Below, piece after piece: positions 9,171-29,146 of a stretch of 35,389 bases of DNA. The stretch is from contig JAFDEW010000004.1 of NCBI GenBank assembly GCA_019310125.1, positions 1 through 35,389 on the forward strand. The letters run 5' to 3'. The first letter of the stretch is position 1, and each line of letters opens with the position of its first letter. The DNA comes from Deltaproteobacteria bacterium. Its GTDB lineage: Bacteria > Desulfobacterota > Desulfobacteria > Desulfobacterales > UBA11574. The position numbers and the translations under genes are program-made. Below the pieces are notes generated by a model. It was given only the letters and a program-made list of their open reading frames with translations. It was not told the origin of the DNA and made no database searches.

Positions 9171-9310
9171 TTTACAACCTGTAAAAAAGACTGACACCCA
9201 TTCATTCCAAATTTTAGTAGCTATATTTTTTAAAAACAAAAAAAACCTGCATTATATCAATTGGTTCAGGATATATCTCGATGGGGCTTTATTTTGGTAC
9301 GGTTGTTGCT
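9171..9310 (+). promoter_or_regulatory. sigma54 promoter unit 1 (upstream motif, IHF-like site, -24/-12)
   Basis: TTTACA-N3-TGTAAAAAAGACTGACA (17-mer at 9180-9196). TATCAATTGGTT at about 9255. TGGTACGGTTGTTGCT at 9295-9310. Confidence 0.75.
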
Positions 9311-10439: not shown

Positions 10440-10475
10440 CCAAACGCTTGAGGCTACGCCTAAAGGAGGTAACAC

Positions 10476-11102
10476 ATGGCTGTCATAACCATTTTTGGAT
10501 TATATGCTTCAAAAAAAAGGGGGTTCGGCAAGGCCCTTGCCAAGAAGTTGAACTATGACTACGCGGACAGGGAAATAATTCGCGAGCTGTCCCGTCGCGC
10601 AAATATATCTGAAGAATATGTGGAATCTTATGAAGATGGTCGATTCACAGGACTGATGGAGATTCTTTCCAAGACCGTCAGTATGAATTTCATCAAAAGG
10701 CTTATCGGTGATAGAGCAGGGTATATAGATTCCAAGATTTACTTCAAACTGCTGGAAGAAATTGTCATTTCTCTTGCCAAAAGGGACAATATTGTTATCG
10801 TTGGACGAGGAAGCCATTGTATACTTCAGGGATATGAAAACGCATATTTTATAAAGATTAAATGTGAATGGGAAGACAGGGTCAAAACCGCCGGTAAATT
10901 ACTATCATCGCGAGTTTGCGATGTAGAAGAGTATATCCTTGAACAGGATAAAAAGGAAAAGAAATTCATGGAGTATTTTTACAACGTTGACTGGTTAGAC
11001 CCTTCACTGTTCAGCCTGGAGATAAACCTGAGCCACGTGAGTAGGGAGGAAGCCATACAACAGGTCATTGATCTGATTTCAGCCAAAAAAAATGTTGCAT
11101 AA
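10476..11102 (+). CDS. Cytidylate kinase-like family protein
   Basis: AVITI..ALAKKLNYDYADREII, VIVGRGS, YFYNVDW.DPSLF.L.IN. The P-loop region is degenerate. AGGAGG RBS. Confidence 0.8.
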   Translation: MAVITIFGLYASKKRGFGKALAKKLNYDYADREIIRELSRRANISEEYVESYEDGRFTGLMEILSKTVSMNFIKRLIGDRAGYIDSKIYFKLLEEIVISLAKRDNIVIVGRGSHCILQGYENAYFIKIKCEWEDRVKTAGKLLSSRVCDVEEYILEQDKKEKKFMEYFYNVDWLDPSLFSLEINLSHVSREEAIQQVIDLISAKKNVA

Positions 11103-11140
11103 CGGCTTTGTCAAATCGCGGTGTATTGTTTATCTTTTTC

Positions 11141-11212
11141 TAACTTCTCAATAAGTTCTGGTGTGTTAAATAGTGATATTGAGCCGAATCCGTAATTTAT
11201 TGAGAAGTTACA
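11141..11212. repeat. Small inverted-repeat element
   Basis: TAACTTCTCAATAA ... TTATTGAGAAGTTA. Its right part recurs inverted at 33259-33282. Confidence 0.6.
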
Positions 11213-11332
11213 ATGAACGATTCGATTTTTTTAATAATTGCAATAAGGGATATGCTGTTGTAACATACAGGAAAAGATTGTCGGCGGTGCATGTTTTCAT
11301 TTTATATGTTGATTCATTTTAAGGAACAAAAT

Positions 11333-11602
11333 ATGAAAATTGAGATTAAGAAACCCACAGACAAGGATCTTGAAACTAAAGACATTTTATCCTGGCCCAT
11401 ATGGGAAAAAGAAATTTCTCGCTTCGACTGGCACTATGACAGTACCGAGGAATGCTATCTATTGGAAGGCAAAGTTATTGTTGAAACAAAAGATGGCAAG
11501 ACCGTGGAATTCGGGAAGGGAGATTTTGTTACATTCCCCAAAGGTCTGTCCTGTGTCTGGGATATTAAAGCGCCGGTAAAAAAGCATTACAACTTTAAAT
11601 AA
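11333..11602 (+). CDS. Cupin domain protein (Cupin_3/DUF861-like)
   Basis: WPIWEKE.S.FDWHY...EECYLLEG.V...FGKGDFVTFPKGLSCVWDI. Start moved to ATG 11333 after AAGGA. Confidence 0.88.
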   Translation: MKIEIKKPTDKDLETKDILSWPIWEKEISRFDWHYDSTEECYLLEGKVIVETKDGKTVEFGKGDFVTFPKGLSCVWDIKAPVKKHYNFK

Positions 11603-11737: not shown

Positions 11738-11876
11738 TTTACATACTGTAAAAAATCCTGACATTAATCTATTTTTGCAAACAAGTTTTATAATTCCCTT
11801 CTCCAACATAGTTACCTATATTTTCAATTAGTTATAATAAATTTTTTCGGCAACCTTTATTGGCATAGGTATTGCT
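11738..11876 (+). promoter_or_regulatory. sigma54 promoter unit 2
   Basis: TGTAAAAAATCCTGACA at 11747-11763. IHF-like TTTCAATTAGTTA at about 11822. TGGCATAGGTATTGCT at 11861-11876. Confidence 0.8.
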
Positions 11877-14943: not shown

Positions 14944-15345
14944 ATGTCGGAAAATGAGAAAAAAAAGGCCGATAAAATAAAGCTTCTGCTTGTGGATGAT
15001 GAAAAAGGTTTTGCGAACATCATTGCCAAACGGATGTCTAAACGCGGCATTGATGTCACCGAGGCCTACAGCGGGACTGAAGCGTTACAGGCCATAAGAA
15101 AGGCAGATTTTGACGTGGCCGTCCTGGATCTGAAAATGGAAGATATGGATGGAATTGAAATTCTAAAAATTTTCAAGAAAATGGACCCGGATCTTGCCGT
15201 GATTATGCTGACCGGTCATGGATCCGAAGCCGCGGCCAAAGACGGCATTAAATTCGGAGCTTTTGATTATCTTACCAAACCCTGTGATCTTGAAGAACTT
15301 CTGGAAAAAATCAGGGAGGCATATCAGCAACCCAAACAGATTTGA
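14944..15345 (+). CDS. Stand-alone response regulator receiver protein
   Basis: LLVDDE, DLKMED, LTGH, YLTKP. Confidence 0.93.
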   Translation: MSENEKKKADKIKLLLVDDEKGFANIIAKRMSKRGIDVTEAYSGTEALQAIRKADFDVAVLDLKMEDMDGIEILKIFKKMDPDLAVIMLTGHGSEAAAKDGIKFGAFDYLTKPCDLEELLEKIREAYQQPKQI

Positions 15346-15356
15346 AAGGAGAAAAA

Positions 15357-16937
15357 ATGTTTTTCAAAAGCAAACAGTTCCAACTCGGTTTAGCATTGGC
15401 ACTCGGGATTATTGTTTTTTTATTGCCCAGACCTGAAGGAACCAAATTTAAGATCACCGGTGATCAGGGGCGATTAGTGTTGCAGGACGTAGGCCAGCAC
15501 TTTACCTTAGTTCCCGCTGAAAAGGAAAAGGCCAAAGAATATATCGTGGAAGCCATACATCCCAAAAGCCCTGAATGTACGGCTCAGTTTTTAAAGGATA
15601 CGGCTGCGAAGCTAAACACAGAAGGGGTTGAGGTCGATTATATCAACGGTCTTTCGCCCAGAGGAAAACGGTTTCTGGCAGTGCTGGTGGTGCTTATTTT
15701 TCTCTTTGTGGCCGAACCCATCCCCCTGGAAATTACCGCCATTTGTATCGGCGTGTTTTTGGTGATCATGGGAATCACCGATGTCAAAGGGGCCTGGGCC
15801 CCGTATATGCATCCGGTGGTGGTTTTTATCATGTGCTGTTTAATCTTTGCCATCTCCCTGGATAAAGCCGGGATTACAAAACGGCTCGGGCATTTTATCG
15901 TCAAAAAAGCAGGAACCAGTGTGACCAAGTTCACTTTTATTATTGCCATCAGTTTAGGCATATCTTCCTCTTTTATGCATGATGCCGCGGCATGTGCCAT
16001 TGGCATTATAACCATGCTTCCGTTGATGAAGGCTGCCGGCATTGAACCGCACACAAAAACGGCCAAATTTATGATGCTGTCTCTCCCCTTTGGTTGTTCC
16101 TGCGGCGGCATGGGATCGCTGATCGGCGGGGGACGCTGTATGGTGGCGGCCGCTTTTCTCAAGGAATTTACGGGACTTGAGATTAGCTTTTTCGAATGGA
16201 TAAAGTATGCCATGCCGGCGGCTATTATTTGCGTACCTATAGCAGTTTCCATCGTTTATTTTGTGTTTCGTCCCAATCCCAAGTACAAACTGCCTGTATT
16301 TGATGAGGAAATCGGTCCCTGGACCGCCCTGGAAAAAAAGACGCTCATTATCATCGGGCTGACATTTGCTTTTTGGTTAACCAAGGGATTCCATGGGATT
16401 CACTATTCGGTTACCGGAATGTTAGGTGTTACCTTCCTGGTCCTTTTCGGCATTTTGAAATGGGAACATATTAATGATAATCTGGAATGGGGAACCGCCC
16501 TCTTTATTTTTGGCGGCGGTATTTCCCTGGGTCTGGCCATGGGCTACTCGGGAGCGGCCTCTTATTTTGCCTACCTGTTTTTCCCTCTGGTTCAAGGCGG
16601 GGGCTGGTTGTTGCTGTTTGCCGGCGTAGCCGTTTTCGGGGCTCTGGTTACCAATGCCATGGCCAACGTGGCAGCAGCAGCTCTGATCTTGCCTATTGTG
16701 ATTCCAATGGCCAGGTTGGAGGGCGTCGATCCCACGGTTATCGCGCTGTGTCTTGGAATGGCCACTTCATTTGCCATGCTTTTGGTGATCGGTTGTCCAC
16801 CCAATGCCATTGCATACAGCTATCGATATTTTAAGGCTGCGGATCTCACTAGAGTGGGACTTGTTGCCACACCGATTTTGTTGTTTGTTTTAGTGGTAGT
16901 GGCATCCACATGGTGGAAAATATTGGGGCTGGTATAA
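15357..16937 (+). CDS. DASS/SLC13 family anion transporter (A)
   Basis: Multi-TM protein with EPIPLEIT, ISFFEW, LFIFGGG.SLG, GCPPNAIAY. Start moved to ATG 15357 after AAGGAG. Confidence 0.88.
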   Translation: MFFKSKQFQLGLALALGIIVFLLPRPEGTKFKITGDQGRLVLQDVGQHFTLVPAEKEKAKEYIVEAIHPKSPECTAQFLKDTAAKLNTEGVEVDYINGLSPRGKRFLAVLVVLIFLFVAEPIPLEITAICIGVFLVIMGITDVKGAWAPYMHPVVVFIMCCLIFAISLDKAGITKRLGHFIVKKAGTSVTKFTFIIAISLGISSSFMHDAAACAIGIITMLPLMKAAGIEPHTKTAKFMMLSLPFGCSCGGMGSLIGGGRCMVAAAFLKEFTGLEISFFEWIKYAMPAAIICVPIAVSIVYFVFRPNPKYKLPVFDEEIGPWTALEKKTLIIIGLTFAFWLTKGFHGIHYSVTGMLGVTFLVLFGILKWEHINDNLEWGTALFIFGGGISLGLAMGYSGAASYFAYLFFPLVQGGGWLLLFAGVAVFGALVTNAMANVAAAALILPIVIPMARLEGVDPTVIALCLGMATSFAMLLVIGCPPNAIAYSYRYFKAADLTRVGLVATPILLFVLVVVASTWWKILGLV

Positions 16938-17037: not shown

Positions 17038-18240
17038 ATGAAAGATATACGCCTTCTTCTTGTTGATGACGAAGATAATTTTCGACAGACTCTCGCCAAA
17101 CGCCTGGCAAAAAAGGGGATTCCTCCCGAGCAGGCCGAAAATGGAGAGAAAGCACTTTCCATTCTTGAAAAAAAAGAGATGGATGTTGTGGTGCTGGACG
17201 TTAAAATGCCCGGTATGGACGGAATCGAGGTCCTTCGCCATATCAAAAAAAAGCATCCCGGGACGGAAGTTATCTTTCTAACCGGTCATGCCGCAACTCA
17301 GGATGGTGTTGATGGAATTAAAAGGGGCGCTTTTGATTATCTCAGCAAACCCATAGAATTCGAACATCTGTTGAGTAAGATCAAACAGGCCTATGATAAG
17401 GTCGTACGGGAAGAAGAAAAGCTCCGGGAAGCCGAATTCAGGAAGAAGATGAGACAGCAAATGGCAACCACTGAAAAATTGGCTTCCCTGGGAACTCTGG
17501 CCGCCGGTGTGGCCCATGAAATTAATAATCCATTGGCCATTATCAATGAATCGGCGGGCTGGCTGAAGCTGATTATAAACAGAGAAGAAATGGCTCAAAT
17601 GCCCCGCAAGCAGGACTTTGAAATGGCCCTGAATAAAATAGAAACGGGCGTGGACAGGGCCAAGAGAATTACCCATCAGCTTTTGGGATTTGCCAAAAAG
17701 GATGATTCCGTCCTTGTTGAAATTAATCTTGGGGATCTGGCCGATGAGGCCGTACAACTGGTACACAGGGAAGCAACCAACAAGGATATTGAAATTGTTC
17801 AGGAAACACAACCTGACATCGGAACGATCTGGAGTGATCCCTACCAGTTACGGCAGGTATTGATTAACCTTTTAAACAATGCCATTCATGCCACCGGATC
17901 CGGAGGCAGAATCACCATCATAATTGAAGCGTTGAACGGAGAAATAAACCTCACCGTTCAGGATAACGGGCAGGGCATACCCAAAGAGAACCTGGATAAA
18001 ATATTCGAGCCGTTTTTCAGTACGAAATCTCCGGGTAAAGGCACGGGTTTGGGGCTGTTTGTTACGCGCGGCATTGTTGAAAAGCTGTGCGGGACTATAA
18101 AGGTGGAAAGCCGCCTAGGTCACGGAACTCGCTTTTGCATCAGGCTGCCGAGATATTGTGAAATAAAAGAGGATCTGGACCAGGATGAACGTATCCCGTT
18201 TTTGGACAATATAGCAAAACACAAAGGTTCAACCCAATAA
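17038..18240 (+). CDS. Soluble hybrid kinase: receiver + HisKA + HATPase
   Basis: N-terminal REC (DDED, DVKMPG, LTGH, SKP), then AHEINNP, NLLNNA, DNGQG, GTGLGL. No TM segment. ATG at 17038. Confidence 0.93.
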   Translation: MKDIRLLLVDDEDNFRQTLAKRLAKKGIPPEQAENGEKALSILEKKEMDVVVLDVKMPGMDGIEVLRHIKKKHPGTEVIFLTGHAATQDGVDGIKRGAFDYLSKPIEFEHLLSKIKQAYDKVVREEEKLREAEFRKKMRQQMATTEKLASLGTLAAGVAHEINNPLAIINESAGWLKLIINREEMAQMPRKQDFEMALNKIETGVDRAKRITHQLLGFAKKDDSVLVEINLGDLADEAVQLVHREATNKDIEIVQETQPDIGTIWSDPYQLRQVLINLLNNAIHATGSGGRITIIIEALNGEINLTVQDNGQGIPKENLDKIFEPFFSTKSPGKGTGLGLFVTRGIVEKLCGTIKVESRLGHGTRFCIRLPRYCEIKEDLDQDERIPFLDNIAKHKGSTQ

Positions 18241-18263
18241 GCTTATAAAGGAGAAAAAAAGAC

Positions 18264-18710
18264 ATGATCAAGATACCAACCAAGGTGCTTTTAGTGGATG
18301 ATGAGAAAGATTTTATTGAAATGCTTTCCTTAAGGTTGACGGAGGTAGGGGAAAAAATTACCGTTGCTTTCAGCGGGCAGGAAGCGCTTGACACATTGGA
18401 AAAAGCCGACATTGATGTGGTCATTCTGGATATTAAGATGCCCGGTATGGATGGTATCGAAACCTTAAGAGAAATAAAGAAGCAATTCCCTCTGGTCGAA
18501 GTCATCATGCTTACCGGACACGGGAGTACCGAAACCGCTGTTGAAGGAATGAAATTAGGCGCTTTTGATTATCTCATGAAGCCGGCGGATTTTGATGATC
18601 TTACTTTGAAGTTGGAAGGGGCCAGAAAGAGAAAAGACGAACAGCAAGAACGGATCAGAAAAGCCGAAGCCAAACTTCTGGTAAGAAAAAGCGGTGGTAT
18701 TTTTTCTTGA
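18264..18710 (+). CDS. Stand-alone response regulator receiver protein
   Basis: LLVDDE, DIKMPG, LTGH, YLMKP. AGGAG RBS. Confidence 0.93.
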   Translation: MIKIPTKVLLVDDEKDFIEMLSLRLTEVGEKITVAFSGQEALDTLEKADIDVVILDIKMPGMDGIETLREIKKQFPLVEVIMLTGHGSTETAVEGMKLGAFDYLMKPADFDDLTLKLEGARKRKDEQQERIRKAEAKLLVRKSGGIFS

Positions 18711-18782
18711 GACTTTTGTTTTTGGCCGGAATTCGCCACTGATTCGTAAGTGTTGTGCTTTTTGTGGAAAGAAACGAATACC

Positions 18783-18834
18783 CATCACGAAAACACGAAA
18801 TTATGTTTATTATTTTTTTCGTGTTTTCGTAATG
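18783..18834. repeat. Palindromic element with 8-bp periodic arms
   Basis: CATCACGAAAACACGAAA ... TTTCGTGTTTTCGTAATG. Confidence 0.65.
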
Positions 18835-18978
18835 AAAAAATTTAGTTTGGGATTTTCAGAGTTAGACGATAACAAAAATATATGCCTTACTAAAATTCCT
18901 TTATGAATACCTGCTCGGCAGCCAACTCCATGACTCCATCATCAAAGGTGCGCCGTCAGCATTCCATATTTTTATTTC

Positions 18979-19114
18979 TTTACACTGTGTAAATAATTCT
19001 GACATATATTTTTTTCCGGCAAACTTCCCGACACACCAATTTCCAAAATAATCCTATATTTTTAAAGAGTTATCCAATATTGCTTGTTGCTTATTTTTTG
19101 GCACATTCATTGCT
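18979..19114 (+). promoter_or_regulatory. sigma54 promoter unit 3
   Basis: TGTAAATAATTCTGACA at 18988-19004. TGGCACATTCATTGCT at 19099-19114. Confidence 0.82.
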
Positions 19115-19192
19115 GTAAGTTATCTTTACCCTTAGATTGTTTTTTCACAATCAGCGTGAAGAATTTCGAATGAAAGATAAAAGATCATCCCA

Positions 19193-19336
19193 ATTTCCAA
19201 AAGGATGTCCAAAAAAAACATTGATGTAACCAAAGCATATAGCGGCACTGAGGCTTTGCAGATGCTGAGAAAAGCGAATTTTGATGTGGTGGTCCTGGAT
19301 TTGAAAATACAGGAAGCTGTTCAATCAGGGAGGTGA
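19193..19336 (+). pseudogene. Receiver-domain remnant, paralog of 14944-15345 (43-aa ORF from ATG 19205)
   Basis: ISKRMSKKNIDVTKAYSGTEALQMLRKANFDVVVLDLK-IQEA aligns with IAKRMSKRGIDVTEAYSGTEALQAIRKADFDVAVLDLK...IREA. N-terminal and internal deletions. Confidence 0.75.
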
Positions 19337-19755
19337 TGGAGGTGAATAACTTCAATGTCCTGCTGGTCGATGATGAACTGGAATTTTTAGCGACTCTGGT
19401 AAAGCGGCTGACAAAAAGAGGACTCAATATTAGTACGGCAAAAAACGGTGAGGATGCGCTGAAAATAATCGGAGGAAAAGTGATTGATGTGGTGGTTCTG
19501 GATGTAAGGATGCCGGGTATTGGCGGCATACAGACACTAAGAGAAATCAAAAAGAAAGATCCTTTGATGGAAGTAATTATGCTGACCGGCCACGCCAGCG
19601 TAGAAGTGGCCATAGAAGGGATGGAGCTGGGCGCTTTTGATTATCTTATGAAGCCTGCTGATATTGATGAGCTATTTTACAAGCTCCAGGACGCGTTTAA
19701 GAAAAAAACAATTCAGCGAGAGAAAATCAAAAAGCTTGAGGAAATAATAAGATAG
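19333..19755 (+). CDS. Stand-alone response regulator receiver protein
   Basis: LLVDDE, DVRMPG, LTGH, YLMKP. Confidence 0.93.
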   Translation: MMEVNNFNVLLVDDELEFLATLVKRLTKRGLNISTAKNGEDALKIIGGKVIDVVVLDVRMPGIGGIQTLREIKKKDPLMEVIMLTGHASVEVAIEGMELGAFDYLMKPADIDELFYKLQDAFKKKTIQREKIKKLEEIIR

Positions 19756-19783
19756 TAAAAAAAACAAAAGGATCGGTATCGAA

Positions 19784-21082
19784 GTGAATTTTTTTAGACA
19801 GTGGGGTCAATTTATGATGATGGGCGCAAAAGCCCATGCACGGTGGGAGATCGGTGTATCCAATACTATTTTTAGTGATAAAAAACGGCTTTTAATACTC
19901 GGTTTGCTGACCATTCCCATAATATTGGGAGGGATTGCGTTTGCAGATCAGATCGGTGGGGCCCTGCCGAATTTATTGGGCGGCAAGAAAGCTTACAGCC
20001 CTGCTTTTTACAGCACCGGTATATTTATCGTCTCGATCCTTATCGGCTTGGGCGCAGGACTGATTACCGGCTGCATCGGTGCAGGCGGGGGTTTCATAAT
20101 TGCGCCTGCTTTGATGAGCGCGGGTGTTAAAGGTATATTAGCCGTGGGGACAGACCTGTTTCATATTTTTGCAAAGGCCATCATGGGAAGTGTCATTCAT
20201 CGGAAGCTGGGGAATGTGTCCGTTGGCCTTGCAGCGGTCTTTCTGATCGGCGCTATTTTAGGCGCAACCCTCGGCGGTGTCATCAACCGCGTACTTTATG
20301 AGATCAATCCGGTGCTCAGCGACGCATTTATCACAACAGTCTATTCCCTTATGCTGGGTTTTCTTGGTACTTACGCCATGACCGACTTTCTCAGGGCAAA
20401 AAAGGCTGAACGCGGGGACTTTCATGGAAAGGATGCCGATGGCGGAAAAATAGAAGGGGTACAAATGGGAAATCTTCCCAAAAAGCTTCAGGCCATCAAT
20501 ATTCCTCCCAAAGTTAAATTTGATTTTGATCTCACACCAACCGGAAGGAGTATTTCATGGATCTTTCTGGTCTTAAGCGGCGTGCTGGTCGGACTTGCGG
20601 CCGGTATTATGGGCGTTGGCGGCGGCTTTTTAACCTTCCCGATATTTGTCTATATCTTGGGTGTTTCCTCCATGACCACGGTAGGAACAGACATTTTTCA
20701 GATTGTATTTACCGCCGGCTATGCCTCAATCAGCCAATACGCGATTTACGGGTTTATTTTTTATACCCTGGCCATGGGTATGCTGCTGGGATCCCTGGTG
20801 GGTATTCAGATCGGTGCAATTGTTACAAAGGTCGTTCCCGGTATCACGATCCGCGGTTTCTACGCCATGGCTGTCCTGGCCGGTTTTCTAAATCGTATCT
20901 TTGCATTGCCGGCCAAGCTGGGCGCCATGGATGTTATTACAATATCAAAAGGCACAGGCGCTTTCTTAGAGTCCATTGGTGTCTGGGCCTTTTTCATCGT
21001 AATTTCCGGATTCGCGATCTGGGTAATCGGTACGTTCCTTATTAATATCCGGGTGCTTAAAGGTGAGGGGATTAAATCATGA
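19784..21082 (+). CDS. TauE/SafE (sulfite exporter-like) family membrane protein
   Basis: Two repeats: GCIGAGGGFII.P...AVGTD and GIMGVGGGFL.FP...TVGTD. Multi-TM. Confidence 0.9.
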   Translation: MNFFRQWGQFMMMGAKAHARWEIGVSNTIFSDKKRLLILGLLTIPIILGGIAFADQIGGALPNLLGGKKAYSPAFYSTGIFIVSILIGLGAGLITGCIGAGGGFIIAPALMSAGVKGILAVGTDLFHIFAKAIMGSVIHRKLGNVSVGLAAVFLIGAILGATLGGVINRVLYEINPVLSDAFITTVYSLMLGFLGTYAMTDFLRAKKAERGDFHGKDADGGKIEGVQMGNLPKKLQAINIPPKVKFDFDLTPTGRSISWIFLVLSGVLVGLAAGIMGVGGGFLTFPIFVYILGVSSMTTVGTDIFQIVFTAGYASISQYAIYGFIFYTLAMGMLLGSLVGIQIGAIVTKVVPGITIRGFYAMAVLAGFLNRIFALPAKLGAMDVITISKGTGAFLESIGVWAFFIVISGFAIWVIGTFLINIRVLKGEGIKS

Positions 21083-21765
21083 TCGAACATAAGAAAGAAT
21101 TTTATGGCGGTTTTGGATTACTAATCGGGTTTGCAGTCACATTGGGAATAATATTTTCGCCGATTTTCAAGGGCCAAAACGGTTTGCAATATTTAGACAG
21201 CCTGTACAACTCCATATCAAAAGGATCGGCCTATTACATTCAAACAGTGAAAAAAGAAACCGATACGTTTTCCGGAAAATCTGTTCAGGTGGTCATAGAC
21301 ATGGCAGACGAGGCCCGGGCACAACAGACAGCCTCTCTGTTTATGAAAGGCGGCGCACGGGTCAATGTATCCGGAACAGGTTTGAAGGTGGAGGGAGATT
21401 TGAGCAAGATCCTTTCAAACTGTCTCGCCGATGCAGACAGCATGTATATAAATGACGGTCAGACAATCTCTTCCAAATACGGATACAATGAAAGGCAAGT
21501 TCTGTTTAACTGGTGGAAAGCGCTCAAGTCCATGGACAAGGGCCTAAAAAAACAAAAGGAGTTCGAAGCAGCTAAAGTAGTATCTCAAGTTGTAAAAAAG
21601 GCGGTGGAATGTTCTTACAACTATTATAAGATCGAACCTCAGAAAATATCAGACCGGGTTGGAATTGTTATCTTTTCTCTGGTGTTTTATGTTGTCTATA
21701 CCCTCTGGTATGGTTTTTCAGTTATGTATATGTTTGAGGGGTGGGGGCTGAAGCTGGGGCACTAA
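21079..21765 (+). CDS. Hypothetical two-TM membrane protein, partner of the TauE-like protein
   Basis: N- and C-terminal TM segments around a soluble loop. ATGA overlap with the upstream stop. Confidence 0.8.
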   Translation: MIEHKKEFYGGFGLLIGFAVTLGIIFSPIFKGQNGLQYLDSLYNSISKGSAYYIQTVKKETDTFSGKSVQVVIDMADEARAQQTASLFMKGGARVNVSGTGLKVEGDLSKILSNCLADADSMYINDGQTISSKYGYNERQVLFNWWKALKSMDKGLKKQKEFEAAKVVSQVVKKAVECSYNYYKIEPQKISDRVGIVIFSLVFYVVYTLWYGFSVMYMFEGWGLKLGH

Positions 21766-21814
21766 ATACAATTCGTTGGCAATACCATAAAAAAAAACGC
21801 GGCTCTGCCGCTTT

Positions 21815-21864
21815 AAAAAGGCTGAAGGCAGGCTTGGGTTCCATCTTGCTTTTAGCCTTTTTTT
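21815..21864 (+). terminator. Possible intrinsic terminator
   Basis: AAAAAGGCTGAAGGCAGG ... CTTGCTTTTAGCCTTTTTTT stem followed by a T-run. Confidence 0.5.
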
Positions 21865-21964
21865 CTTATATCTTAACAGGAAAGATCGTAATTTTTCAAT
21901 AAATTATAGCGGATGCTGAATCTTAAGGTCCCGGCTTTAATTATTCTCGTAACAGGTTAATGTT

Positions 21965-24559
21965 ATGGGCAAACTGATTAATGGTTTTAAAAAGCTTTTT
22001 ATAAAGAAGCCAAAACTGGATGCTGCTGATGTCGAAGAGCTTCGAATTGCATTTAAGGACAGGTATCACAGTTTCAAGCTCCTATTAAATGCCAACAACA
22101 GAACGCTTGAAATTATGGCCGATATTGAGAGAGCCCTTCAGGGCAAACAACCCTTTGGCATGTCCTTTGTCAGGTCAAGTTGTACGGCTGTATCTGTCAA
22201 TATCTTTAATATGATAAAAAATATAGAAAAGCTCGCCCCGGGCAAGTACGGAAAGCTCAATGACCGGTTCAATAATATCCAGCAATATATAGACCTTTTG
22301 CTATCACAGAAGAAATCCATGGAAGATGAAAGACTTATTTTATCCCTGGATACTGTAAATAAGGAAATGACCGATCTTGTGGGAAGTAAGATGGCTAATT
22401 TAGGAGAAATAAAAAACAGGCTTCAGATCAAAGTTCCCGGAGGATTTGTTATTACAGCGGCCGCCTATGAAAGATTTATAAGGGAAAACGATTTGCAGGC
22501 GGAAATAGACAGGCGCTTTCAGTCCGCCGATGTGGACAATATGGAAAGACTTTACACCCTGAGTTCAGAAATTCAGCAGCTTATTATAGCATCCGTTATT
22601 CCGGATGATCTGGCCGTTTCTATTATGCAGGCATGGAAACACTTTACATCAGAAACCGGAGATCGGACAACTCTGGCCCTGCGAAGCAGCGCTCTGGGGG
22701 AAGATACACAGGAGAGCTCATTTGCGGGTCAATATAGGAGCGAATTAAACGTAAGTATTGAAAGCATTTTCCAGGCGTATAAGGAAGTTATTGCGAGTAA
22801 ATACTCTCTTCAGGCCGTCACCTACCGATTGAACAGGGGATTTAAGGATGAAGATATTTCCATGTGTGTGGGATGCATGGCCATGGTGGATGCTGTTGCG
22901 GGTGGTGTCATGTATTCACGTAATCCCGTTGATGTGAGGGATGACTCGATTTTTATAAACGCTGCATGGGGATTGCCCAAGTCTGTTGTTGACGGTAGTG
23001 ATGCCTGTGACCTTGTTGTTGTTTCAAGAAAAGCCCCCATGGAAATTATTCATGAAGATATAAAAACCAAGAAAAGAAAATTTATCTGCTTTCCCGAAGA
23101 AGGGGTGTGCCGGATGGAGTTGACCGGAAAAACCGGAAATCTGGCCGCCATTGATAAAAATCAGGCATTAGATTTGGCAAAACTTGCGGTTAAGATTGAA
23201 GAATATTATGCAGGGCCCCAGGACATTGAATGGGCTATTGCCCAGGATGGCGCGGTTTATATCTTGCAATGCCGGCCATTGCAGCAAACGGAGATGGAAA
23301 AAAGAGATATCCCTGAATCGGCGATGGAAGCAGATCGTGAGGTCGTGATTACCAGAGGGGGAGTTACCGCAAGCCGCGGCGCAGCCTTCGGGGCAGTTTA
23401 TGTGGTTGAAAAAGGAATAGATATGCTGCGATTTCCCGAGGGTGATATCCTTGTTACACGGCAGGCACTCCCCAGATGGGCCTCCCTCTTAAATCGATCC
23501 GCTGCCGTGGTTACTGAGCAGGGCGGTTTTGCAGGACACCTTGCCAACGTGGCAAGGGAGTTCGGAGTCCCGGCACTCTTTGGGGTGTCCGGTGCTGTAG
23601 ATCGTTTGAGCCATGGAGAAATGGTGACCGTTGATGCCGATTCTCGTGTAATATATCAGGGGAAAATCGAGTCATTGCTGATAAAATCCGAGAAAAAGAA
23701 AAACCTTATGCACGGAAGCCCGGTTTATGAAAATCTAAAACAGGTAAGCAGCCTGATTTTACCCTTAAACTTGCTCAACCCGGATTCTCCTGATTTTAAT
23801 CCGTCCAACTGCAAAACTTTACATGATATTACCCGGTTTATCCATGAAAAATCTGTTCAGGAGATGTTCAAATTTGGCAAGGAACACAATTTTTCCGAAA
23901 AATCAAGCAAACAACTTTATTATAATGTGCCGATGCAGTGGTGGGTATTAAATCTGGATGACGGATTTAAAGAAGAAGTGGAGGGAAAGTATGTTACACT
24001 CGAAAATATTGTCTCTATTCCCATGCTGGCCTTCTGGGACGGGTTCACGGCTATTCCCTGGGACGGCCCCCCCGCAATTGACGGCAAGGGACTCATATCT
24101 GTCATGTTTCAGTCAACTGCTAACAGGGCCTTAACCCCTAGTGTTCGTTCAGCTTATTCCGACCGCAACTATTTTATGATCTCGAAAAATTATTGCAGCT
24201 TAAGTTCCAGGCTCGGGTATCACTTTTCCATTATGGAGGCTCTGGTCAGTGAGCGATCCATTGAAAATTACACAAGCTTCCAATTTAAGGGAGGTGCTGC
24301 AGACTATCATAGACGGCTTAAACGAGTACATTTTATCGGAGAGATATTGGAAAAACATGGTTTCAGAGTCGAAATCAATGAGGACAATCTGATTGCCCGC
24401 GTGGAGGGTCATAAAATGGATTTTATGAAAAATTACCTTGCAATTCTGGGTTACCTGACGCTCCATACCCGTCAACTCGATATGATCATGGCCAATACTG
24501 CCGCCCTGAACCATTATCGATCAAAAATCGATAATGACATTCAGACAATTCTCAACTAA
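21965..24559 (+). CDS. PEP synthase/PPDK-like protein (ATP-grasp + mobile His domain + non-canonical C-terminus)
   Basis: VGSKMANLGE, VPGGF, LRSSA..ED...SFAGQY, QDIEW, LQCRPL. His-domain TEQGGFAGHLANVAREFGVP. The C-terminus (TLHDITRFIHE...) does not resemble the pyruvate TIM barrel. Confidence 0.88.
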   Translation: MGKLINGFKKLFIKKPKLDAADVEELRIAFKDRYHSFKLLLNANNRTLEIMADIERALQGKQPFGMSFVRSSCTAVSVNIFNMIKNIEKLAPGKYGKLNDRFNNIQQYIDLLLSQKKSMEDERLILSLDTVNKEMTDLVGSKMANLGEIKNRLQIKVPGGFVITAAAYERFIRENDLQAEIDRRFQSADVDNMERLYTLSSEIQQLIIASVIPDDLAVSIMQAWKHFTSETGDRTTLALRSSALGEDTQESSFAGQYRSELNVSIESIFQAYKEVIASKYSLQAVTYRLNRGFKDEDISMCVGCMAMVDAVAGGVMYSRNPVDVRDDSIFINAAWGLPKSVVDGSDACDLVVVSRKAPMEIIHEDIKTKKRKFICFPEEGVCRMELTGKTGNLAAIDKNQALDLAKLAVKIEEYYAGPQDIEWAIAQDGAVYILQCRPLQQTEMEKRDIPESAMEADREVVITRGGVTASRGAAFGAVYVVEKGIDMLRFPEGDILVTRQALPRWASLLNRSAAVVTEQGGFAGHLANVAREFGVPALFGVSGAVDRLSHGEMVTVDADSRVIYQGKIESLLIKSEKKKNLMHGSPVYENLKQVSSLILPLNLLNPDSPDFNPSNCKTLHDITRFIHEKSVQEMFKFGKEHNFSEKSSKQLYYNVPMQWWVLNLDDGFKEEVEGKYVTLENIVSIPMLAFWDGFTAIPWDGPPAIDGKGLISVMFQSTANRALTPSVRSAYSDRNYFMISKNYCSLSSRLGYHFSIMEALVSERSIENYTSFQFKGGAADYHRRLKRVHFIGEILEKHGFRVEINEDNLIARVEGHKMDFMKNYLAILGYLTLHTRQLDMIMANTAALNHYRSKIDNDIQTILN

Positions 24560-24606
24560 AAATAAAACCTTGACTGGTTTGAATCCGCATCCTTTGTTTT
24601 CATTTT

Positions 24607-24743
24607 TTTGCAATGTGTAAATAATCCTGACAAACCCGCCACGCAAATCTTATCTTAAAAATTTTTCTTAATTATATAAATACCATTATATTAGCATATT
24701 AGATGTATTTTCCTTTGTTGCTATTTTTGGCATGCCGATTGCT
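24607..24743 (+). promoter_or_regulatory. sigma54 promoter unit 4
   Basis: TGTAAATAATCCTGACA at 24616-24632. TGGCATGCCGATTGCT at 24728-24743. Confidence 0.82.
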
Positions 24744-24782
24744 CTATTTAAAAGAGTCTAAAAGCATGCGTTCCGGGAGGAA

Positions 24783-26471
24783 ATGATGATGCCGGATCAT
24801 TTTTCAACACTAAGGAGAGCCATTCTTACCTGTATGGTCCTGGTTCCATTAATTCCATTCATCCTGGCTCTGGGCACCGGTTATTATTATTTCACGACGT
24901 CTCTTGAGGACAGTTCCATTGAAAGCATGAAAAGAATTGTCGAAGATCACCGGCATATGATCGAGTCTTTTCTCAAAGAGCGGAAAAATGATTTAGATTT
25001 TATTATTCATTCCTATACCTTCGAAAATCTCAGTCAATCTGAAAACCTTGAAACCGTCTTTAATAATTTACAGAAAAAATCCCCGGCGTTTTTTGATCTG
25101 GGAGTTTTCAACCCGTCCGGGGTGCATGTTGCTTATCACGGGCCTTACAGTTTAAAAGGCAAGATTTATAAAGATATGCAATGGTTCAAGGAAGTGATGA
25201 AACATGGATATTATATCAGCGATATTTTTTTAGGGTATCGGCAGATACCGCATTTTGTTATTGCGGTTACCCAGGAGGAGATGGGCAAAAAGTGGGTGCT
25301 TCGGACAACCATTGATACGGTTTCATTCAATAATATTGTAAAAAGTATCCGCATCGGTAAGACCGGAGAGGCCTACATTCTGAATGCAAACGGCTTACTT
25401 CAGACAGAACCGCGTTCCGGCGGAAAACTCATGGACAAAAATCCGCACAACATCAACTATCCGTCATCCGACACCCGCACCGAAATTTTTATAAATAACA
25501 ATGTTAAAGGTGAAAAATATCTATGCACGACCACCTGGCTGCAGAATAAAAAATGGCTGGTGGTGGTCAGACAGGAAAAAGCAGATGCATTCAAAGCACT
25601 TACTTCGGCCGCTTATTTGATTATTCTCATCATGGGGGTTGGCGGGTCGGCGATCACCGTGATTGCGTTTTACCTTACGAATCGTATTGTCGGGCGCATG
25701 GAAAAAATGGATGTTGAAAAGGACCGCTTGAACCAGCAGCTCATCGGAGCGAGTCGACTTGCAGAGCTGGGTGAAATGTCGGCGGGTTTTGCTCATGAGA
25801 TTAACAATCCCCTTCAGATCATCAAAACTGAGCAATCCCTGATCCAAATGACTTTAGAGGACATGAAGAAAGCAGGCCAGCTAAAGGAATCGGAGTCTCT
25901 GGCAGAACTTGAGGATTCCATGGATCAGATCAGACTTCAGATTTCCCGGTGTTCCGAGATTACCCGGGCAATTTTAAAATTGGGCCGGCAGGACGAGCCC
26001 AAACCTCAAGATATAACCCTTAAAGATTTCATTCCGGAAATCACCGGTATGGTGGCTCAAAAGGCCATTGTCCACGGAATTTCAATCGAGCAGGATATTG
26101 CCGAAAACACGGTTCGCATACATGGAGATCCCACCCAATTCCAGCAAGTTTTAGTGAATCTTTATAACAATGCAATAGATGCGATTCTCGAACGTCATGG
26201 AACTTCGGGCGGCAAACTGATTATCAAAGCCGGGCCAAAACAAAACAACCGGGTCGAAATTATGGTCATTGACAATGGCCAAGGAATAAGTCCCGAAAAT
26301 TTGAATAGAATTTTTTCACCGTTTTTTACAACCAAATCGGTTGGGAAAGGAACGGGCTTAGGTCTTTGGATATGTTACGGTATCATCGATAATATGCGCG
26401 GCAGTATGGAGGTCAGCAGTGACGTCGGTGTCGGAACCACCGTCACCATACTGCTACCGGCAGCAGTTTAA
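24783..26471 (+). CDS. Membrane sensor histidine kinase, Cache-type (HK2)
   Basis: Paralog of HK1. AHEINNP, NLYNNA, DNGQG, FFTTK, GTGLGL. GGAGG RBS. Confidence 0.95.
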   Translation: MMMPDHFSTLRRAILTCMVLVPLIPFILALGTGYYYFTTSLEDSSIESMKRIVEDHRHMIESFLKERKNDLDFIIHSYTFENLSQSENLETVFNNLQKKSPAFFDLGVFNPSGVHVAYHGPYSLKGKIYKDMQWFKEVMKHGYYISDIFLGYRQIPHFVIAVTQEEMGKKWVLRTTIDTVSFNNIVKSIRIGKTGEAYILNANGLLQTEPRSGGKLMDKNPHNINYPSSDTRTEIFINNNVKGEKYLCTTTWLQNKKWLVVVRQEKADAFKALTSAAYLIILIMGVGGSAITVIAFYLTNRIVGRMEKMDVEKDRLNQQLIGASRLAELGEMSAGFAHEINNPLQIIKTEQSLIQMTLEDMKKAGQLKESESLAELEDSMDQIRLQISRCSEITRAILKLGRQDEPKPQDITLKDFIPEITGMVAQKAIVHGISIEQDIAENTVRIHGDPTQFQQVLVNLYNNAIDAILERHGTSGGKLIIKAGPKQNNRVEIMVIDNGQGISPENLNRIFSPFFTTKSVGKGTGLGLWICYGIIDNMRGSMEVSSDVGVGTTVTILLPAAV

Positions 26472-26556
26472 ACTAAATGCAGGACTACTGACCTATTGTA
26501 GATTCAGATTCAACATATTTTAATGAAGAATTCACACCTTGAAGGCATATAAAAGA

Positions 26557-26676
26557 TGAACGTCGAACATCGAACATCGAACGTTGAACATCCAATAATG
26601 TATTCTACCATTTATAATAAAGACAAAGCGAAGCGCCTTCCACATTCGACGTTCGACGTTGAACGTTCGATGTTCA
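26557..26676. repeat. Inverted element built of 7-bp tandem units (CGAACAT/CGAACGT)
   Basis: GAACGTCGAACATCGAACATCGAACGTTGAACAT ... TTCGACGTTCGACGTTGAACGTTCGATGTTCA. Confidence 0.8.
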
Positions 26677-26784
26677 AATTGTTACATCTAAAATTACGAC
26701 TAACCCCCCATATTACGTTGAAATTATGTATACAGTCAGGAGTTCTGAAATAAGTCTAAACAATTCGTTAACAGGGAGTCAATT

Positions 26785-27231
26785 ATGAAAAAAATGAGGA
26801 TGATAATAGTGGATGATGAGGAAAGGTTTTTGTCAACCATGAAAAAATTGCTTACCAAAAAAGGGTATGATGTGGTGACCGCCTCAAGCGGGGCAGAGGC
26901 ACTGGAAATAATCGGTGCTCAAAATATCCATGTGGTGATCCTTGATGTTAAAATGCCGGGCATGGATGGGAATGAAACGTTAAGGGAAATTAAAAAGCGA
27001 TTTCCATTGACCGAGGTGATCATGCTCACCGGACACGCGACCATGGAATCCGCGGTGGAAGGCTTAAAATCAGGGGCCATGGATTATTTAATGAAGCCGG
27101 CGGATCTGGATGAAATCATCAAGAAAGCAGAGGATGCTTTCGCAAAAAGACAAAACCTGGAAGAAAAAATTCGTGTGGCCCGGATGCGGAAGATAGTGAA
27201 ATCGCCGAGTGAAATTATTCAGGATTCATAG
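26785..27231 (+). CDS. Stand-alone response regulator receiver protein
   Basis: IIVDDE, DVKMPG, LTGH, YLMKP. Confidence 0.93.
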   Translation: MKKMRMIIVDDEERFLSTMKKLLTKKGYDVVTASSGAEALEIIGAQNIHVVILDVKMPGMDGNETLREIKKRFPLTEVIMLTGHATMESAVEGLKSGAMDYLMKPADLDEIIKKAEDAFAKRQNLEEKIRVARMRKIVKSPSEIIQDS

Positions 27232-27279
27232 AACCTTTTTTCGCTTTTCAGCCAAGTATAGGGAACCCATTTTCTTTTT

Positions 27280-27414
27280 TTTACACTGTGTAAATAATCC
27301 TGACATATACATCCGCACATTCCACCGTTAAAATTTCTCTCAGTCAATTAATTATCAGTTATTTTAAATGGTTATCCAAGTTTGTTTATTGCTTTATCTG
27401 GCATAAAGATTGCT
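27280..27414 (+). promoter_or_regulatory. sigma54 promoter unit 5
   Basis: TGTAAATAATCCTGACA at 27289-27305. TGGCATAAAGATTGCT at 27399-27414. Confidence 0.82.
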
Positions 27415-27511
27415 ATTATTAAACACAAACCTTGTATGAAGAGATTATGGAGCAAAATCATTTTTCAACAAATTACAGACAATTTTATCTAATTCAGTTC
27501 AAGGAGAATGT

Positions 27512-29146
27512 GTGAAAATTCAGACAACAAGTGCCGATGGCCGGTCCGCATTCTGGAAGAATAAGCCGGGTTATAAGCCGATTTTGTTTATTGCCGCAGC
27601 CGTGGTTTTTATTGTTATGGTTGTTATGCCGTCACCCCAAAGTATGATTGACATGGTGACAAAAGTCAGCCCTCCCGGGTATAAGCTGTCAAAGGGGTGT
27701 TCAACTATTGTTGAAACGGTTAACCAAAAGTTACGGCCCAAGGCCTTTAAAGCATCCCGTCAGGACAAGACAATAAAAGGGGAAAAACCACTGATGGATG
27801 AGAAAGGGGTGGCCCGGAATGCTAAAATTATGATTGCCATATTATTTTTAGCCGCTTTTTTATGGGGCACTGAAGCCCTGCCTCTGGGCGCCACGGACAT
27901 TATGGTGGGGGTCTTGATTTATCTTTTTGCTATCCTGCCGATTAACGAAATTTCCAGGGCGTATATGAAAGATGCCGTGTTTTTTATTTTCGGCATCCTG
28001 GCGGTAGCGGTTGGCGTTTCCAAAACCGGTCTTGACAAACGGATCGGCCTGATTCTTCTGAGCCGGATTAAGAGCGCTAAATCTTTTGCCTTTATCTTTT
28101 TTCCTCTACTGGCTATGTGTGCCGGATTTTTATCCGAACATGCCCTGGTGGCCCTCCTGATTCCCGCACTTATGGGGGTATATAAGGTTACCTGCAAAAT
28201 GCACGGCGTTAAAAAAGACCGGGCTCTGGCCATTTTTCTTTTTCTTGGGGTCTGTTTTGCGGCCAATCAAGGAGGCCCGGGGTCTCCGGCAGCGGGGGGA
28301 CGCAACGCCATTATGGTCGGCTATTTCATGGAATATGGGATGCCGATTTCTTTTTTGCAGTGGATGAAATATGGCCTGCCGTTTGTTCCGTTCATGGCGG
28401 TGGTCATCGGAGCTTACATGTATATTCTCTTTAAGCCCAAATTCAAGGTGCCGGATGTAAATCCCAGCGAAGTCGTAAAGGCTGAAGTGGCGAATATGCC
28501 TAAATTCGGAGGTCAAGAAGCCATAATGGCTATCATCTTGATCCTTTTAATCACTGGATGGATTACGCTGAGTAAAATTGCCGGTCTTGGCGGCCCCACT
28601 CTTTACGCGGTAATGGCAATGTTTGTATTCCGTATTGTCTCCTGGGATGACATCCAGGCGGGCGTGGCCTTTGATGTGGTCGGGTTGTATGCCGCCGCCT
28701 GTGCCATGGGAGTGGGTCTGAAATTTACCGGAGGCGCCCTCTGGCTGGCATCTACCTTTGTCAATTTCCTTCCGGATTTTATGACCAAAGGTGACGGCCT
28801 GATTATAGGGGTCAGTCTGCTGACCGGAACCATGACCAATTTTATGAGTGACGGTGCTACGGTTGCCGCTTTGGGACCAATCGTTCTCCCCATGGCCACA
28901 CTTGCCAATGTTAATGTTTGGAAAGTGGGGCTGGCCACCGCTTTTTCTTCCTCATTTGCGAATTTTCTGGTGGTCGGCACGCCCAACAATGCAATTGCCT
29001 TCGGCATGAGCCGGGATTTTGAAACCGGTGAAAGGTTGCTGGATGTAATGGATTTTGTTAAATACGGACTTCCGGTAACTATTCTGGCCTGGCTCGTCCT
29101 CTGGGGTTGGGCAGTCTTCGGATACTGGAAATTTTTATCCTGGTAG
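27512..29146 (+). CDS. DASS/SLC13 family anion transporter (B)
   Basis: LWGTEALPLG, GLDKRI, ISFLQW, VGTPNNAIAF, DFVKYG. Multi-TM. AAGGAG RBS with GTG start. Confidence 0.88.
   Translation: MKIQTTSADGRSAFWKNKPGYKPILFIAAAVVFIVMVVMPSPQSMIDMVTKVSPPGYKLSKGCSTIVETVNQKLRPKAFKASRQDKTIKGEKPLMDEKGVARNAKIMIAILFLAAFLWGTEALPLGATDIMVGVLIYLFAILPINEISRAYMKDAVFFIFGILAVAVGVSKTGLDKRIGLILLSRIKSAKSFAFIFFPLLAMCAGFLSEHALVALLIPALMGVYKVTCKMHGVKKDRALAIFLFLGVCFAANQGGPGSPAAGGRNAIMVGYFMEYGMPISFLQWMKYGLPFVPFMAVVIGAYMYILFKPKFKVPDVNPSEVVKAEVANMPKFGGQEAIMAIILILLITGWITLSKIAGLGGPTLYAVMAMFVFRIVSWDDIQAGVAFDVVGLYAAACAMGVGLKFTGGALWLASTFVNFLPDFMTKGDGLIIGVSLLTGTMTNFMSDGATVAALGPIVLPMATLANVNVWKVGLATAFSSSFANFLVVGTPNNAIAFGMSRDFETGERLLDVMDFVKYGLPVTILAWLVLWGWAVFGYWKFLSW

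Follow-up and report, generated by a model that had tools for sequence, protein, structure and literature searches.

What is a protein that resembles phosphoenolpyruvate (PEP) synthase doing among two-component receivers and anion permeases? The question is raised by a stretch of DNA of 35,389 nucleotides, here called the window, from a Deltaproteobacteria bacterium (Desulfobacterota; Desulfobacterales; UBA11574; assembly GCA_019310125.1, contig JAFDEW010000004.1), on which a gene at 21965..24559 (+) encodes a PEP-synthase-like protein of 864 amino acids. An earlier note, made from the sequence alone, had suggested that this protein is a non-canonical phosphodonor rather than a metabolic enzyme and that it might pass its phosphoryl group to a neighbouring receiver or to a transported solute. 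We conclude that the protein is almost certainly not a PEP synthase, and tentatively propose that it is a dikinase-type phosphotransferase, derived from PpsA and not making PEP, that acts as a receiver-gated enzyme for the handling of a sulfur oxyanion by a TauE-type permease. The strongest clue to its role is the restriction of its family to dsrA/aprA-bearing genomes, which was absent from the earlier note.

The protein is built from an N-terminal region (residues 1-125; 21965..22339), an ATP-grasp nucleotide-binding domain found by both Pfam and Foldseek (PPDK_N, residues 137-451; 22373..23317; Pfam E 3.9e-93), a swivelling phospho-His domain (PEP-utilizers mobile domain, residues 490-560; 23432..23644; Pfam E 2.6e-19) and a family-specific C-terminal domain (residues 572-864; 23678..24556), all encoded on the + strand. 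The phospho-His motif GGFAGH occupies residues 520-525, the codon of His525 lies at 23537-23539 (+), and this histidine is invariant in an alignment of 71/71 full-length relatives. The motif residues of the ATP-grasp domain (G140, K142, R240-S241-S242, E246-D247, Q419-D420, E422 and R437) are likewise invariant in 46/46 relatives. Two residues before the histidine, the position that in PEP synthase and PPDK carries the regulatory threonine, the target of the DUF299 kinase-phosphatase, is Ala523 here; of the 71 relatives, 56 have Ala at this place, 14 Thr and one Val. A whole-protein AlphaFold2 model (pLDDT 80.4, pTM 0.62) has three long helices at the N-terminus (residues 20-58, 66-90 and 97-114), a region that belongs to no Pfam family; searched against Pfam at E<=10, the N-terminus, the C-terminus and a 228-amino-acid membrane protein encoded upstream gave chance-level rows only. 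The reading of the sequence in the earlier note, with intact ATP-grasp motifs, a phospho-His motif, an additional helical N-terminus of about 125 residues and an alanine for the regulatory threonine, was therefore borne out in these respects.

The PEP-utilizers_C barrel (PF02896) is absent from the Pfam matches of the 864-amino-acid protein. The NCBIfam models of PEP synthase align with it only over their own positions 3-488 of 798 and score well under their curated cut-offs (NF005057, 369 vs 598; TIGR01418, 351.9 vs 739.75), the rifampin phosphotransferase model NF041857 reaches 226.1 bits against a cut-off of 999, and the PigC/RedH and PPDK models of NCBIfam match more weakly than those of PEP synthase. 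The matches to solved structures of PEP synthase and rifampin phosphotransferase are confined to residues ~120-607. The source genome encodes two full PPDKs (contigs C50 and C124), a phosphotransferase system (PTS) enzyme I (C134) and a DUF299 regulator (C343); a PF02896 profile search of this genome matched C134, C50 and C124 only, and a canonical PpsA was not found in the assembly, which is 93% complete. The missing barrel, the scores below the cut-offs and the presence elsewhere in the genome of two PPDKs and a PTS enzyme I show that the protein is not a canonical PEP synthase, and on this point the earlier note was right. Two further, distant PPDK_N proteins are encoded in the source genome, in which the C-terminal domain occurs once. 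Contig C74 (982-3948, minus strand of locus L002) encodes another non-canonical dikinase relative, of 988 amino acids, fused to a receiver domain that is weakly matched near its N-terminus and PPDK_N at 436-816, in which Pfam found no mobile His domain. A protein of at least 976 amino acids on contig C353 (1-2961 of locus L004) has an unassigned N-terminus of ~480 residues, then PPDK_N, and a mobile His domain at its extreme C-terminus; this is the order of a rifampin phosphotransferase, without the substrate domain between PPDK_N and the His domain.

In place of the barrel stands the C-terminal domain, whose model (residues 572-864, pLDDT 79.5) is alpha+beta with antiparallel sheets and contains no (beta/alpha)8 barrel. 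Structure prediction and Foldseek searches of the terminal regions had been suggested in the earlier note, which described the last ~280 residues as unlike the PEP/pyruvate barrel; the region, of 290 residues, is indeed different, and no TIM-barrel C-terminus was found. Foldseek gave no match of the C-terminal model to the PDB at E<=1e-3 and, with the full-length model, no structure spanning this domain; a query of the ESM Atlas with the domain gave no usable match. A VIA-align comparison of the C-terminal model with 48,161 chains had a best Z of 5.5, which is common background, and coproporphyrinogen oxidase (Z 5.5), the bilin reductases and the MotA C-terminal domain (Z 4-5) were set aside as fold relatives at background level. 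The missing match does not make the fold a new one. The domain is conserved on a par with the ATP-grasp domain (mean column conservation 0.70-0.79), and the positions invariant in 46 full-length relatives are H620 D621, R624, H627 E628, W699 and G751 H753 in its first half and N768 Y769, G776-G777-A778-A779, R783, R787, D807 and H834-T835-R836-Q837-L838-D839 in its second. Tandem paralogs that are 30-37% identical retain a smaller core, consisting of C.T.HD..R..H, W699, G.HF, NY, the Gly-Gly loop with R787 and T-(R/K)-Q-(L/I)-D, and they also preserve the His and ATP-grasp motifs. As far as sequence can tell, this pattern resembles that of an active site equipped with a loop for binding anions, and the invariant polar residues argue for a predicted catalytic acceptor site over a mere dock.

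The family is large and is hidden behind the names given to it. Of 8000 candidates scored in a word-indexed search with the full protein, 2765 matched; the top 120 are 66-98% identical to the query, 118/120 covering at least 98% of it and the other two 85% and 92%, and the closest named relative among the matches listed is from Desulfobacteraceae bacterium Eth-SRB2 (97%). In the databases they are called 'pyruvate, water dikinase' or 'PEP/pyruvate-binding domain-containing protein'. Searched alone, the C-terminal domain matched 1210 cluster representatives at E<=1e-3, of which 466 remained at E<=1e-30, and among the 150 representatives listed the long proteins (~830-900 residues) bear it at their C-terminal end; judged from these sequences, the domain is almost always fused to a dikinase core. 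Four unusually long members (P0142, P0177, P0203 and P0212) had no extra Pfam domain and no receiver fusion, no dedicated search for longer fused forms having been made; the fusion of receivers to homologs that the earlier note had thought worth a survey was thus not seen in the four. Copies per genome range from 1, in the source genome, to at least 7, many genomes having from 2 to at least 7 paralogs. The genes often lie in tandem pairs or triplets, such as three in 6 kb in G605:C11, and copy number also varies in genomes G049 and G334. This variable copy number suggests subfunctionalisation or hetero-oligomers.

The distribution of the family follows dissimilatory sulfate reduction. The first four genomes probed outside Desulfobacterota all carried dsrA, in one case split across frames, and profiles of the C-terminal domain and of dsrA (with aprA in Acidobacteriota) were run over samples of 301 Acidobacteriota and 301 Desulfobacterota genomes. 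The domain was present in 23 of the Acidobacteriota genomes, dsrA in 35 and aprA in 30; all 23 positives had both dsrA and aprA, and the domain was found in 0/266 genomes without dsrA and in 0/5 with dsrA but no aprA. The Desulfobacterota sample contained the domain in 119 genomes and dsrA in 156, with both in 113, the domain only in 6, dsrA only in 43 and neither in 139, so that 139/145 genomes without dsrA also lacked the domain. The six genomes with the domain only are 61-97% complete, and at least four belong to families in which dsrA is present in the remaining members. When 30 Desulfobacterota families were itemised, the 11 with the domain were all among the 18 with dsrA, and 0/12 families lacking dsrA had it. 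In the samples examined the family is confined to dsrA/aprA lineages.

In Acidobacteriota the association extends to the gene order itself. All four loci examined (L093-L096; 4/4) have the order dsrB-dsrA-qmoC-like-qmoB-qmoA-CxxCxxCC-aprA-aprB-TauE, and divergent from this block runs a histidine kinase gene followed by a receiver gene and two tandem dikinase-like genes. The TauE of these loci is 30% identical to that of the window, central-loop motif included. One of them, L093 (G041:C19:9500-29400), has a receiver gene that ends 4 nt ahead of the dikinase-like gene. Further conserved gene(s) lie between aprB and TauE in the Acidobacteriota loci.

A second line of evidence comes from the genes that travel with the enzyme. 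In the window these are a stand-alone receiver (19333..19755, +; identified by Pfam and the receiver tree), a TauE/TSUP-family permease of 432 amino acids whose N-terminus is extended and whose central loop is long (19784..21082, +), and the 228-amino-acid membrane protein (21079..21765, +), which has a hydrophobic helix at each end, belongs to no family and overlaps the TauE gene by 4 nt. We called and clustered open reading frames (ORFs) in 80 loci from species-representative genomes, of which 61 were assessable after removal of 2 without a called target ORF and 17 with <2500 nt upstream. The genes for TauE and a ~230-amino-acid membrane protein lie directly upstream on the same strand in 30/61 loci, and in those 30 the two either share 4 nt or are separated by 3-4 nt. 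Within 10 kb, TauE was found in 48/61 loci, the small protein in 39/61, a histidine kinase in 40/61 and a DASS symporter in 11/61. A receiver stands no more than 800 nt upstream of TauE in 31/45, and a stand-alone receiver no more than 4.2 kb upstream of the dikinase-like gene in 45 of the 55 loci whose flanks are long enough; when all 70 loci are counted, a stand-alone upstream receiver is present in 47, at 2.0-3.1 kb in 30 (receiver-TauE-small protein-enzyme) and at <600 nt in 17 (receiver-enzyme). A tree of 124 receivers put 40/46 of these cassette receivers in one clade of 47 leaves (support 0.86). All 46 have D13, the acceptor Asp57 and K107, with T85 in at least 90%, and residues 86-121, which follow T85, are also very conserved; the central loop of TauE and the 228-amino-acid protein are weakly conserved outside their membrane helices. 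With most of the cassette receivers upstream of it falling in one clade, the enzyme has a dedicated receiver partner. The earlier note had taken the placement among receivers as meaningful and had proposed a survey of their co-occurrence in homologs; the recurrence of this dedicated clade, and of TauE, over so many loci indicates that the placement is not due to chance. A receiver-CBS protein, a cytidylate-kinase-like protein (PF13189), universal stress proteins and a Pat-like acetyltransferase also recur near the cassette in other loci.

The surroundings of the gene in the window are rich in signalling and transport functions. Pfam places receivers at 9537, 12098, 14414, 14944, 17005 (a hybrid), 18264, 19333, 26785 and 31292, and dCache kinases at 12574, 24783 and 29610; the receiver at 9537 is part of a receiver-CBS protein (9537-11102). 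Immediately downstream of the enzyme gene are a dCache histidine kinase (24783-26471) and a receiver (26785-27231), together spanning 24783..27231 (+), and then a DASS-family anion symporter (27512..29146, +), of which a second copy lies at 15342-16937. In both symporters ~100 residues precede the start of the Pfam/TIGR00785 match. Just upstream of the intact receiver at 19333, a stretch at about 19196-19310 (+) resembles mid-receiver sequence by eye and is probably a gene remnant. An Rfam search over 18000-27600 returned nothing at E<=1.

Several of these units appear to be under common control. A scan with a sigma-54 consensus, allowing at most 1 mismatch and with 100 shuffles as control, found 7 promoter-like sites in the window against 1.07 expected, a number reached by 0/100 shuffles. 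Five of them are on the + strand ahead of + units (9295, 11861, 19099, 24728 and 27399), and 119-124 nt upstream of each stands the palindrome TTTACA-N3-TGTAAA, which has 5 matches against 0.22 expected (0/100 shuffles reach 5); the pairs lie at 9171-9310, 11738-11876, 18979-19114, 24607-24743 and 27280-27414 (+). The pair ahead of the receiver-TauE-membrane protein unit (18979..19114, +) consists of the palindrome TTTACACTGTGTAAA (18979-18993) and a perfect sigma-54 promoter-like site (19099-19114), while the downstream kinase and receiver have their own palindrome at 24607 and sigma-54-like site at 24728. The palindrome and the sigma-54-like site stand ahead of both the receiver-TauE-small protein unit and the DASS symporter at 27512, so that a single activator seems to serve the two. 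The window itself showed no gene for a sigma-54 activator, and the receiver-CBS, kinase, TauE and DASS units may all be driven by one that is encoded elsewhere. The dikinase-like gene and the genes for the receiver, TauE and the small protein are all covered, at a likeness of at least 95%, by metatranscriptome contigs from two studies, with carry-over of DNA possible; in run X1 no contig extends over 21716-21909, in the gap ahead of the dikinase-like gene, which with contigs is no evidence of separate transcripts.

A look-alike of this module already has a phenotype. The 'nitrate cluster' of Korte 2014, DVU0251-DVU0245 in Desulfovibrio vulgaris and Dde_0597-0605 in D. alaskensis G20, is described (PMC4001038) as encoding a permease of the TauE type and a hypothetical protein, followed in the list by a periplasmic protein similar to PtxB, a kinase, a receiver, a protein that combines ATP-grasp and PEP-utilizer mobile domains, and a dual-specificity phosphatase. 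According to the same paper, transposon mutants of the TauE gene (DVU0251), the hypothetical gene (DVU0250), the receiver gene (DVU0247) and the PPDK-like gene (DVU0246) are all nitrate-resistant and grow in 100 mM nitrate, whereas the D. vulgaris phosphatase mutant (DVU0245/Dde_0605) is more sensitive, with a fitness of -6.04 vs +2.18 to +11.44 for the other genes; the corresponding mutant of D. alaskensis G20 has a value of +2.08, of the same sign as the other genes. The authors proposed a leaky thiosulfate transporter, citing unpublished thiosulfate phenotypes (PMC4001038). A Desulfovibrionaceae locus in our set (L097, genome G605) has exactly this gene order, including a PtxB-like protein and, at about 9906-11432 (+) after the dikinase-like gene, a gene for a DSPc-type dual-specificity phosphatase; its dikinase-like protein has the same C-terminal domain (E 3.2e-63). 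In G605 the nitrate-cluster-like copy scores 212 bits and the ortholog of the window's protein 449 bits. The profile of the 228-amino-acid protein misses the small membrane protein of L097, with which it has position and hydrophobic character in common but no detectable sequence similarity. The pairing of phosphatase and dikinase in L097 resembles that of plant glucan water dikinase with phosphatases of the dual-specificity type. Our literature searches on DVU0246, DVU0251 and DVU0247 returned only Korte 2014 and one transcriptome paper from the library searched, and none was found that joins a dikinase with TSUP or a phosphoenolpyruvate synthase-like protein with a response regulator. The main text of reviews and genome papers on dsr organisms (PMC6018796, PMC10591310, PMC5840216) contains no such gene. 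In print the family figures as no more than a 'poorly annotated' gene to which a phenotype is attached; both phosphotransfer domains belong to textbook knowledge, and the C-terminal domain, the pairing with a receiver and the restriction to sulfate reducers are undescribed in the literature searched.

An explanation that may accommodate these data is as follows. If the enzyme works like PEP synthase, PPDK and rifampin phosphotransferase, its ATP-grasp domain would load His525 of the swivel domain from ATP, and the swivel domain would deliver the phosphoryl group to an acceptor held in an Arg/His-rich pocket of the C-terminal domain. Cache kinases would phosphorylate the receiver, the receiver would switch the enzyme, and the TauE-type permease module would need the enzyme for the uptake or handling of a sulfur oxyanion. 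The acceptor would be a small molecule: the solute that is transported, or else a metabolite derived from this solute. The parts of this proposal differ in strength. A functional tie to dissimilatory sulfur metabolism or anion transport is likely, and a role in sulfur-anion uptake or its control is probable because the family is found only in sulfate-reducing lineages and stands beside a receiver and an anion permease. That the receiver is a direct partner of the enzyme is favoured by a little. We put forward a small-molecule acceptor as a tentative prediction by analogy, favoured because every characterised relative of the enzyme class, to our knowledge, acts on a small molecule or on glucan and because the pocket residues are fixed across paralogs. 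A bolder form of the proposal, which we regard as a long shot, is that sulfate reducers possess a two-component-gated enzyme class of their own that couples ATP to sulfur-oxyanion traffic, enzyme and TSUP permease together making up a PTS-like trap in which the anion that enters, or its first product, would be phosphorylated via His525. Were this doubtful scheme to apply, the paralogs, each with its own kinase and receiver, might conceivably feed different signals into one chemistry, and the nitrate toxicity in Desulfovibrio could, on the same slender chance, be a side effect of the uptake route.

Other destinations of the phosphoryl group have to be considered. The enzyme could be a protein kinase, passing the phosphoryl of His525 to the TauE permease, the small membrane protein or another regulator, with the dual-specificity phosphatase reversing the modification so that the permease is switched on and off. 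We consider this unlikely. Plant glucan water dikinase is opposed by phosphatases of the dual-specificity type, which would provide a precedent for such a pairing, but we know of no characterised relative of the enzyme class that phosphorylates a protein. A DSPc-type phosphatase gene does follow the dikinase-like gene in L097 and in the nitrate cluster (Table 3 of PMC4001038; DVU0245/Dde_0605), the permease, small protein, receiver and dikinase-like mutants described there share one phenotype, and the opposite fitness of the D. vulgaris phosphatase mutant would fit a reversing enzyme; the D. alaskensis mutant, however, has the same sign as the others, no phosphatase gene lies next to the dikinase-like gene of the window, and the poor conservation of the TauE central loop and of the 228-amino-acid protein outside their membrane helices argues against either as a substrate. 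Transfer from His525 to Asp57 of the cassette receiver, beside or replacing a histidine kinase, was the idea of the earlier note and seems to us improbable. It would make good use of a dedicated receiver clade whose acid pocket, acceptor Asp, Thr and Lys are all intact, of a receiver gene that is close to the enzyme gene in 17 loci and only 4 nt ahead of it in L093, and of the phenotype shared by receiver and dikinase-like mutants in the account given of them (PMC4001038). Histidine kinases, however, flank 40/61 loci and directly precede the receiver in L093-L097, and so already give the receivers a canonical donor. Such a transfer would also leave the invariant, catalytic-looking C-terminal domain without a role; the four long members examined have no receiver fusion, and the weakly matched receiver of the distant paralog on C74 is at the N-terminus, the usual place of input domains.

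The position of the genes beside aprAB-qmo-dsrAB in Acidobacteriota raises the alternative of a dikinase running in reverse in sulfate activation, in which AMP from APS reductase, pyrophosphate or phosphate from ATP sulfurylase and a phosphoryl donor bound at the C-terminus would give ATP. Dikinase partial reactions are reversible, as established for PPDK, and the domain accompanies aprA in 23/23 positive Acidobacteriota genomes and is found in none of the five with dsrA but no aprA. There is no known donor, however, the family is missing from many sulfate reducers, and the receiver, the permease and the nitrate phenotype would be left unexplained, so that we consider this very improbable. Finally, the database name 'pyruvate, water dikinase', the fact that the best NCBIfam rows are those of PEP synthase and the failure to find a canonical PpsA in the source genome could be taken to mean a true PEP synthase with a divergent pyruvate-binding domain. 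We give this next to no credence: PEP-utilizers_C is lacking, the scores are far under the cut-offs, the modelled C-terminus is no barrel, two full PPDKs are present, and the distribution of the family tracks dsrA and not central metabolism.

A number of observations weigh against the proposal of a receiver-gated enzyme of sulfur-oxyanion handling. The upstream receiver is missing in 10/55 loci and TauE is not within 10 kb in 13/61. The domain is missing from 12 dsrA-positive and 7 aprA-positive Acidobacteriota genomes, and it is dispensable for sulfate reduction as such, because 43/156 Desulfobacterota and 12/35 Acidobacteriota genomes with dsrA lack it. Fisher values overstate the association, because the sampled genomes are kin, and the four Acidobacteriota loci are not independent, being 60-90% identical to each other. 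The gap of 199 nt ahead of the dikinase-like gene (21766..21964) contains no sigma-54 site and no upstream palindrome; it does contain terminator-like hairpins, one at 21799-21811 from the minus listing of the scan and a second, seen by eye, at about 21815-21866, and because of these features the dikinase-like gene may be expressed alone. The published genetics concerns a paralogous module, our locus being equated with the DVU/Dde genes by gene order alone, and the thiosulfate link of the nitrate cluster rests on unpublished data. The C-terminal pocket is drawn from conservation alone, because the fold matches nothing solved, and the assignment of an acceptor is a prediction.

Sulfate reducers are responsible for a large part of the carbon and sulfur cycling that takes place without oxygen and for the souring of oil fields, and the uptake of sulfur oxyanions in these organisms and its control are poorly known. 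A large and very conserved family has been misnamed PEP synthase. The acceptor of the orphan C-terminal domain, if found, would add a new reaction to the dikinase superfamily, provide a mechanism for the nitrate-resistance phenotype of the look-alike module and put right the annotation of the family (2765 proteins matched among the 8000 scored candidates), and it would possibly yield a marker gene for sulfate-reducing lineages. New here are the co-occurrence counts with dsrA and aprA, the supercluster of Acidobacteriota, the receiver clade, the recurrence of TauE and the small membrane protein as neighbours, and the shared activator site.

Among known systems, the wider setting of the window matches a 30.5-kb Desulfobacteraceae cluster around a DASS-type sulfate transporter, with two-component systems and CBS proteins, reported for Desulfosarcina variabilis and 26 sulfate reducers (PMC11887813); the likeness is one of gene content, the window having two DASS symporters, Cache kinases, many receivers and a receiver-CBS protein in ~25 kb. 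The terms dikinase and PEP synthase have 0 occurrences in the main text of that paper, whose figures and PDF supplements, outside the search, may show the gene. DVU0246/Dde_0604 of the nitrate cluster shares with our gene the set of TauE, small hypothetical protein, receiver and dikinase with ATP-grasp and mobile domains, but belongs to a paralogous subfamily (DVU0246 has 2235 bp, the gene here 2595 bp), and the PtxB-like protein and dual-specificity phosphatase of that cluster are both absent from the Pfam results for the window ORFs. At the level of the protein, PpsA (TIGR01418/NF005057; PDB 2ols, 8a8e and 9dae) has the same order of ATP-grasp and swivelling phospho-His domains, with sequence matches of E 1.6e-65 to 4.1e-59 and a Foldseek match to 2ols of E 2.6e-25 over 471 columns; it differs in having a TIM barrel, whereas the protein here has an unrelated C-terminal domain of 290 amino acids, an additional three-helix N-terminus, Ala for Thr and scores below the curated cut-offs. 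Rifampin phosphotransferase (RPH; NF041857; 5hv1, 5fbs) and PigC/RedH combine the same two phosphotransfer domains with another acceptor domain, and HpeI (9goj), also a PpsA-like enzyme with a different acceptor, appears in the Foldseek listing. The ATP domain of our protein superposes on that of RPH (5hv6_A) with a TM of 0.90 on the target and a root-mean-square deviation of 2.4; the His domain of RPH, however, is C-terminal and follows the substrate domain, whereas here it is central, and the C-terminal domain here has no match to any RPH chain. PTS Enzyme I, a weak NCBIfam row at E 5.1e-4, uses a swivelling phospho-His domain of the same superfamily to hand its phosphoryl group to a protein; it is loaded from PEP via a barrel, whereas the protein described here has no barrel and carries an ATP-grasp loader instead.

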